In this document: positions 38,879 to 40,074 of the stretch, in pieces | Numbering within the stretch: the first letter of the stretch is position 1 | Layout: the number at the start of each line of letters is the position of its first letter | NCBI RefSeq assembly: GCF_057098645.1 | Contig: NZ_CM169472.1 | Length of the DNA stretch: 64,000 bases | Direction: 5' to 3' (one strand) | Translations under genes and position numbers: made by a program | Notes under the pieces: generated by a model | Databases searched by the model: none | What the model was told of the DNA's origin: nothing | The model's input: only the letters and a program-made list of their open reading frames with translations

Positions 38879-40074
38879 GGAAGGTGCGAATAAGCAGGTC
38901 ATTTCTTCCCAAGCTGACTCGTTGATTAAAATTTCGCGGATCTGGGCCGATTTTTTTCCCGCAAACACATCGAATCAGCCTATTTAGGCTATTTTTTCCA
39001 CCATTTCTGGCGTTATTTCCGGTTTTTACTGAGATCTCTCCCACTGACGTATCATTTGGTCCACCCGAAACAGGTTGGCCAGGGTGAATAACATCGCCAG
39101 TTGGTTATCGTTTTTCAGCAGCCCCTTGTATCTGGCTTTCACGAAGCCGAACTGCCGCTTGATGATGCGAAACGGGTGCTCCACCCTGGCACGGATGCTG
39201 GCTTTCATGTATTCGATGTTGATGGCCGTTTTGTTCTTGCGCGGATGCTGCTTCAAGGTTTTTACCTTGCCGGGACGCTCGGCGATCAGCCAGTCCACAT
39301 CCACCTCGGCCAGCTCCTCGCGCTGTGGCGCTCCTTGGTAGCCGGCATCGGCTGAGACAAATTGCTCCTCTCCATGAAGCAGATTACCCAGCTGATTGAG
39401 GTCATGCTCGTTGGCCGCGGTGGTGACTAGGCTGTGGGTCAGGCCACTCTTGGCATCGACACCAATGTGGGCCTTCATGCCAAAGTGCCACTGATTGCCT
39501 TTCTTGGTCTGATGCATCTCCGGATCGCGTTGCTGCTCTTTGTTCTTGGTAGAGCTGGGTGCCTCAATGATGGTGGCATCCACCAAAGTGCCTTGGGTCA
39601 TCATGACGCCTGCTTCGGCCAGCCAGCGATTGATGGTCTTGAACAATTGACGGGCCAGTTGATGCTGCTCGAGCAGGTGGCGGAAATTCATGATGGTGGT
39701 GCGATCCGGCAGGGCGCTATCCAGAGATAATCGGGCAAACAGGCGCATGGAGGCGATTTCGTACAGGGCATCTTCCATGGCACCGTCGCTCAGGTTGTAC
39801 CAATGCTGCATGCAGTGAATACGCAGCATGGTCTCCAGCGGATAGGGCCGTCGGCCATTGCCCGCCTTGGGATAAAACGGCTCGATGACAGCGGTCATAT
39901 TCTGCCATGGCAGAATCTGCTCCATGCGGGAGAGGAAAATCTCTTTTCGGGTCTGACGGCGCTTAGTGCTGAATTCACTATCGGCGAAGGTGAGTTGATG
40001 GCTCATGATGTCCCTCTGGGATGCGCTCCGGATGAATATGATGATCTCATATCAGGAACTTGTTCGCACCTTCC
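38879..40074 (-). mobile_element. IS5 insertion sequence (1196 bp) with 4 bp TTAG target-site duplication
   Basis: Terminal inverted repeats GGAAGGTGCGAATAAG (38879-38894) and its near-complement CTTGTTCGCACCTTCC (40059-40074), flanked by TTAG at 38875-38878 and 40075-40078. Confidence 0.95.
39026..40006 (-). CDS. insH: IS5 transposase
   Basis: 326 aa ORF ([35 protein letters not shown]...) inside the IS5 inverted repeats. Confidence 0.95.

Follow-up and report, generated by a model that had tools for sequence, protein, structure and literature searches.

We are highly confident that an active copy of ISKpn26, an insertion sequence of the IS5 family, recently transposed into an E. coli chromosome of the O145:H28 lineage, where it interrupts a tssD toxin gene that carried two earlier lesions. 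Within the window, by which we mean the whole 64,000-nucleotide stretch of DNA that was analysed, the element, the interrupted gene and the genes that follow it are arranged as follows.

38133-38878, + strand: 5' fragment of tssD/yhhZ (Hcp domain and linker), with two older lesions, delimited by alignment to the intact 1179-nt A16 allele
38875-38878, no strand: left TTAG of the target-site duplication, present as a single TTAG at the empty site in O145:H28 genomes
38879-40074, - strand (taken from the transposase gene): complete copy of ISKpn26 (IS5 family), 1196 bp, assigned from identity to annotated copies and from layout
38879-38894, no strand: terminal inverted repeat at the transposase-distal end, GGAAGGTGCGAATAAG, matching the other arm at 15/16 positions
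39026-40006, - strand: intact DDE transposase, 326 aa, same protein as WP_000019445.1, assigned from the ORF, NF033581, PF01609 with PF05598, and the signature
40059-40074, no strand: terminal inverted repeat at the transposase-proximal end, CTTGTTCGCACCTTCC; read inward (reverse complement), GGAAGGTGCGAACAAG
40075-40078, no strand: right TTAG of the target-site duplication, directly outside the element end
40079-40515, + strand: 3' fragment of tssD/yhhZ, HNH (His-Me finger) toxin domain, whose frame is restored on removing the IS and one TTAG
40512-41006, + strand: yrhA, intact, 164 aa, its start overlapping the tssD stop (ATGA); presumed immunity gene, from its position
41101-41256, + strand: yrhD, intact, 51 aa, in the same AT-rich islet
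41456-41794, + strand: yrhB, Imm35 immunity-protein family, with a frameshift close to its 3' end that O145:H28 genomes also have

The original prediction, made from the letters alone, had described a 1196-bp element with 16-bp terminal inverted repeats and a direct TTAG duplication, and each of these was found at the coordinates listed above. The two arms of 16 bp are imperfect repeats of each other, and the duplication is perfect. Since TTAGG is the sequence of the empty site and G the first base of the element, the window copy taken alone is equally compatible with an element of 1196 bp and a 4-bp duplication or with one of 1195 bp and a 5-bp duplication. Identical or near-identical copies elsewhere, however, are flanked by TTAA, CTAG, CTAA and ATAA, and we therefore take the element to be 1196 bp long, to start with GG and to generate a duplication of 4 bp. 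As had been proposed, TTAG is compatible with the target preference of IS5, since it suits the Py-T-A-Pu pattern and is among the documented IS5 targets. An IS5-type DDE transposase, short imperfect bounding repeats and a 4-bp Py-T-A-Pu duplication are all present, as they should be in a member of the IS5 family.

The transposase had likewise been expected to be full-length, at 326 aa, and its ORF indeed runs from an ATG start without interruption or frameshift. Against the NCBIfam model of the IS5 family (NF033581) it scored 367 bits, where the cut-off is 140, and Pfam recognised DDE_Tnp_1 (PF01609, 123 bits) together with the N-terminal DUF772 (PF05598, 75 bits); residues 272-283 carry the R(3)E(6)K signature. 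Copies whose DNA is byte-identical to the element carry the annotation WP_000019445.1. By analogy with IS5 and other DDE enzymes, this transposase would recognise the two 16-bp terminal repeats and make a staggered 4-bp cut at a TTAG (Py-T-A-Pu) target, the repair of which would leave the TTAG duplication. ISKpn26 is extremely common on enterobacterial plasmids, and the element could have come from one. It landed at codon 247 of tssD/yhhZ in an islet that is AT-rich and dense in Py-T-A-Pu sites; there it is the third lesion of a decaying toxin gene, probably a neutral one, and it leaves yrhA intact.

The assignment to ISKpn26 follows from both sequence identity and layout. Copies with 100% identity over the whole 1196 bp were found in several E. 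coli chromosomes and a Salmonella IncI2 plasmid, so that the element is no chance arrangement of repeats and reading frames; those copies are annotated as 'IS5-like element ISKpn26 family transposase' (WP_000019445.1). Plasmid records matching the element number at least 5000, led by Klebsiella and Escherichia. The ISKpn26 reference, which belongs to the IS5 group of the IS5 family and comes from Klebsiella pneumoniae (NC_016845), is 1196 bp long and has a 326-aa ORF at positions 69-1049 (PMC8796155); when the element is numbered from 40074, the window ORF starts at position 69 (40006) and ends at position 1049 (39026). In length, ORF position and 4-bp YTAR duplication the two are alike, and the element itself shows no difference from ISKpn26; only the place of insertion, codon 247 of tssD/yhhZ in a chromosome of O145:H28 type, has not been seen elsewhere. 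The name thus rests on NCBI-annotated copies and on the published layout rather than on an alignment to the ISfinder reference. In Klebsiella, the disruption of mgrB is what ISKpn26 is best known for (PMC8796155).

The original prediction overlooked that a gene is interrupted, namely tssD/yhhZ, which already carried a nonsense mutation and a frameshift. When the element and one TTAG are deleted in silico, the two flanking ORFs fuse into a single frame, and the insertion point corresponds to nt 739-742 of the intact gene, in codon 247. Among 5,426 complete E. coli genomes, 3,806 contain the empty site rebuilt in this way without interruption; O145:H28 strains match it at 100% identity, and there the region is annotated as tssD and yrhA. 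The window tssD is 99.6% identical to the intact A16 allele, its lesions aside. These comprise a TAA stop at codon 25 (38205-38207), created by a G-to-T change, and a 4-nt tandem duplication of TTGG (38573-38580) that shifts the frame. Both are common to O145:H28 genomes that do not carry the IS, and so they are older than the insertion; in one such genome, RM12761, tssD is annotated 'frameshifted; internal stop'.

The nature of the gene product can be read from the intact A16 protein (WP_000065935.1, 392 aa), in which Pfam places a T6SS_HCP domain (PF05638) at residues 18-139 (E = 1e-12). The C-terminal part gave a weak match to the Pfam HNH model at residues 322-343, with 17-19 bits under a cut-off of 21.4 bits, and an HH...N...H motif lies at 40306-40383 of the window. 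The gene is the yhhZ of K-12, and YhhZ has been classified as a His-Me finger nuclease of group 32 (PMC5714182). Fusions of Hcp to HNH (Hcp-ET1) have been reported as DNases delivered by a type VI secretion system (T6SS2) and accompanied by a downstream immunity gene (PMC6730261). As in the YhhZ/Hcp-ET1 class, an N-terminal Hcp domain is combined in the window gene with a C-terminal HH...N...H motif, and the small, overlapping yrhA follows. The window gene departs from that class in being a pseudogene with three lesions, and its likeness to the experimentally studied Hcp-ET1 (AAF13_24945) would be one of domain layout. The codon-25 stop, the 4-nt frameshift and the IS insertion leave it without the intact ORF of an Hcp-ET effector. 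Judged by its sequence, tssD/yhhZ is an Hcp tube protein fused to a predicted HNH nuclease toxin, and it was dead before the element arrived.

The islet in which the gene lies has the order tssD-yrhA-yrhD-yrhB and is located between yhhY and ggt. It has a GC content of 0.344, whereas the remainder of the window has 0.524 and the element 0.536. From its position, yrhA is presumed to be the immunity gene for the tssD toxin; a Pfam search of YrhA and YrhD gave no match. The whole islet is decaying in the O145:H28 lineage, with tssD and yrhB damaged and yrhA and yrhD intact.

Comparison with the RM12761 chromosome places the insertion in its genomic context. The window is collinear with that chromosome from malQ to yhhN in two blocks of ~99.98% identity, and the two differ in structure only by the element and 4 bp. 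The left block of 38.9 kb shows 8 substitutions, the right block of 23.9 kb 4 substitutions and a single 1-nt indel; an apparent fifth mismatch on the right, at 40073, falls inside the element and is an artefact of the alignment edge. No transposase is annotated in the matching 63-kb stretch of RM12761, and together with the collinearity this supports the earlier statement that the window contains no other IS element.

The right flank of 23.9 kb is ~100% identical to many O145 genomes. When the junctions were searched in both orientations in 5,426 complete E. coli genomes, no copy was found at the window site, and an exact 35-nt junction scan of genome_contigs and metagenome_contigs likewise gave no match. 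A near-identical O145:H28 chromosome without the IS and the absence of the junction elsewhere thus support an insertion that is both recent and strain-specific. The variant is also active, since byte-identical copies occupy four other, unrelated sites, each with its own YTAR duplication (TTAA, TTAG, CTAG and CTAA); in some genomes at least 40 places match the element. The window copy itself is very probably competent for transposition, considering that its ends and ORF are intact and that the variant moves elsewhere. The suggestion that the element is relatively recent and potentially still mobile is therefore well borne out by the empty site in near-identical genomes, the intact ends and ORF, and the identical copies at other places.

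The element had been named IS5, and whether this name should stand depends on how closely it resembles IS5 proper, which is 1195 bp long, ends in imperfect repeats of 16 bp and duplicates a Py-T-A-Pu target (PMC11677980, PMC5493358). As a representative we used the 1195-bp copy of strain PSS-12, annotated as 'IS5-like element IS5 family transposase' (WP_000019403.1), and the comparison with the IS5 sequence that had been proposed as a check yielded a DNA identity of only 91.5%, with 7 gap columns. The resemblance to the IS5 of E. coli K-12 is considerable: both have 16-bp imperfect repeats that begin GGAAGGTGCGAA, a 4-bp Py-T-A-Pu duplication, phased T-tracts at the transposase-distal end and DDE transposases that are 98% identical (320/326 residues in common with Ins5A, i.e., 6 differences). 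By the loose isoform criterion of ISfinder practice, more than 90% DNA identity, the label 'IS5 isoform' would even be allowed. However, the window element is one base longer, and the divergence is concentrated in the non-coding ends, where only 74% of the first 100 nt, at the transposase-distal end, and 83-89% of the last 300 nt are identical; the window ORF also lacks a 12-codon N-terminal extension of the compared IS5 copy. Moreover, the 100% identical copies are labelled ISKpn26 by NCBI and kept apart from those labelled IS5, and the layout is that of the ISKpn26 reference. Near-identity was thus found to many NCBI-annotated copies of ISKpn26, and neither the length of 1195 bp nor near-identity to K-12 IS5. 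It is highly improbable that the element is the canonical IS5 of K-12 type. The family named in the original prediction holds, whereas the name does not: on sequence grounds the element is ISKpn26, a named relative of IS5 within the IS5 family that would be IS5-like in its working, and 'IS5-like' is a fair description in view of the near-identical transposases.

Two further readings concern the reality of the insertion and its consequences. IS elements are a common source of misassembly, and no other public genome contains the junction, such that an IS copy could in principle have been misplaced at this locus by the assembler; yet both junctions are base-precise at the true ends of the element, and a 4-bp consensus target, present once in the empty site, is perfectly duplicated around them, which a misjoin would not bring about. 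We regard an assembly artefact as scarcely credible. As to consequences, the insertion is most likely without effect, because tssD was already broken twice, although, prior to the insertion, an ATG at 38527 would have opened an ORF of 262 codons that may have been expressed. The contrary view, that outward transcription or relief from H-NS silencing alters the expression of yrhA or of the truncated HNH fragment and that the insertion was retained for this reason, draws on the known ability of IS5 to activate neighbouring silent, H-NS-bound operons (PMC11677980, PMC5493358) and on the AT-richness of the islet; a promoter equivalent to the ins5CB promoter of IS5, pointing towards 40074, would be the candidate source. 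An ORF of 151 codons (40060-40515) has a TTG start within the terminal repeat, takes in the HNH motif and extends into the start of yrhA, and IS5-type insertions recur in the islet in 13 other complete genomes. Those insertions, however, are scattered and occur in both orientations (7 vs 6), which does not indicate directional selection, and their recurrence, roughly 2-3 times the uniform expectation, approximates the 3.4-fold density of target motifs. A promoter and terminator scan of 37900-41100 found 7 promoter-like sites as against 9.0 ± 2.6 in shuffled sequence, a background level that lends no support to an outward promoter acting on yrhA, and the bent 'IB' end, through which IS5 exerts its activation, points away from yrhA. 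A functional insertion therefore seems very unlikely, and a neutral third lesion in tssD remains the preferred reading.

The 13 other complete E. coli genomes with IS5 or ISKpn26 in the islet comprise 7 in the window orientation and 6 in the opposite one. An orientation bias was considered and rejected: the first seven were alike only through the way in which the search joins pieces of alignments, and a flipped query gave the six opposite ones. Six of the seven same-orientation loci were mapped, strain ANT, whose hit profile was identical to that of DAM, being left out, with the following targets.

Strain 980-2 (L004): CTAG, tssD nt 985-988
Strain AST46 (L005): CTAA, tssD nt 1058-1061
Strains B771 (L006) and PSS-12 (L007): TTAG, tssD nt 823-826
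Strain DAM (L008): no duplication; right junction shared with PSS-12, 200 bp deleted on the left
Strain SW071618 (L003): ATAA, between yrhD and yrhB

In B771 (L006 2081-3275) and PSS-12 (L007 2081-3275) the IS lies at one and the same TTAG and in the same orientation. The PSS-12 copy is pure IS5, whereas that of B771 is chimeric, its first ~200 nt being 99-100% identical to IS5 and most of the remainder 98-100% identical to ISKpn26. Recombination or gene conversion between copies of IS5 and ISKpn26 may lie behind this, or else an independent insertion of a hybrid element. In DAM the element (L008 1881-3075) is IS5, with 200 bp of tssD lost on the left and no target duplication, and it looks like an IS-adjacent deletion derived from a PSS-12-type insertion. 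The ISKpn26 copy of SW071618 (L003 3342-4537) is flanked by ATAA, which falls outside the Py-T-A-Pu consensus.

Whether the islet attracts such elements was judged by a rough estimate. Given at least 2.6 IS5-type places per genome and an islet of ~0.05% of an assumed ~5-Mb genome, ~5 genomes with an insertion in the islet would be expected as compared with the 13 observed, some of which are clonal, so that the excess is, on this rough estimate, ~2-3-fold. Py-T-A-Pu sites occur at 23.5 per kb in the islet and at 7.0 per kb elsewhere in the window, a 3.4-fold difference that predicts about the same excess, and a strong insertion hot spot was accordingly rejected. A Py-T-A-Pu target and a bias to AT-rich, H-NS-bound DNA have been reported for IS5 (PMC11677980, PMC5493358); such a preference fits the excess in the islet, yet is not needed to account for it. 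We find it doubtful that the islet could be a preferred landing pad for IS5-type elements beyond its motif density, with IS hits as a general route by which orphan Hcp toxins are lost and the immunity gene is kept, and equally doubtful, as a separate matter, that the plasmid-associated ISKpn26 in an O145:H28-type chromosome, one of a Shiga-toxin lineage, marks recent contact with multidrug-resistance plasmids.

In practical terms, the element should be labelled ISKpn26 rather than IS5, and the two flanking ORFs should be joined into a single tssD/yhhZ pseudogene instead of being annotated as genes in their own right. The insertion is usable as a strain-specific marker within the O145:H28 lineage, and the presence of an element found mostly on plasmids of Klebsiella and E. 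coli hints at past plasmid contact. The locus also offers an example of toxin gene decay in which the presumed immunity gene survives. Beyond correct annotation, this is a known element with known behaviour and of little import.

A few minor features of the element and the window may be added. A plus-strand ORF of 91 codons (39803-40078), probably incidental, lies inside the element and crosses the terminal repeat, with the duplicated TTAG supplying its TAG stop. At the transposase-distal end, three T-tracts (38951-38957, 38992-38997 and 39023-39027), whose starts are 41 and 31 nt apart and thus roughly in helical phase, occupy the position of the bent 'IB' region of IS5, even though the divergence from IS5 is strongest there (74-87% identity). 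Elsewhere in the window, a block of lower GC content (0.44-0.48) at ~16700-20300, between glpD and glgP, is annotated in RM12761 with three hypothetical proteins and a PstS-family substrate-binding protein and may be a small accessory island. According to the same annotation, a toxin-antitoxin pair of the GNAT type, made up of a DUF1778 protein and a GNAT acetyltransferase, adjoins malT at ~7960-8710, and a second such pair, ataR/ataT, adjoins panM at ~55900-56700.
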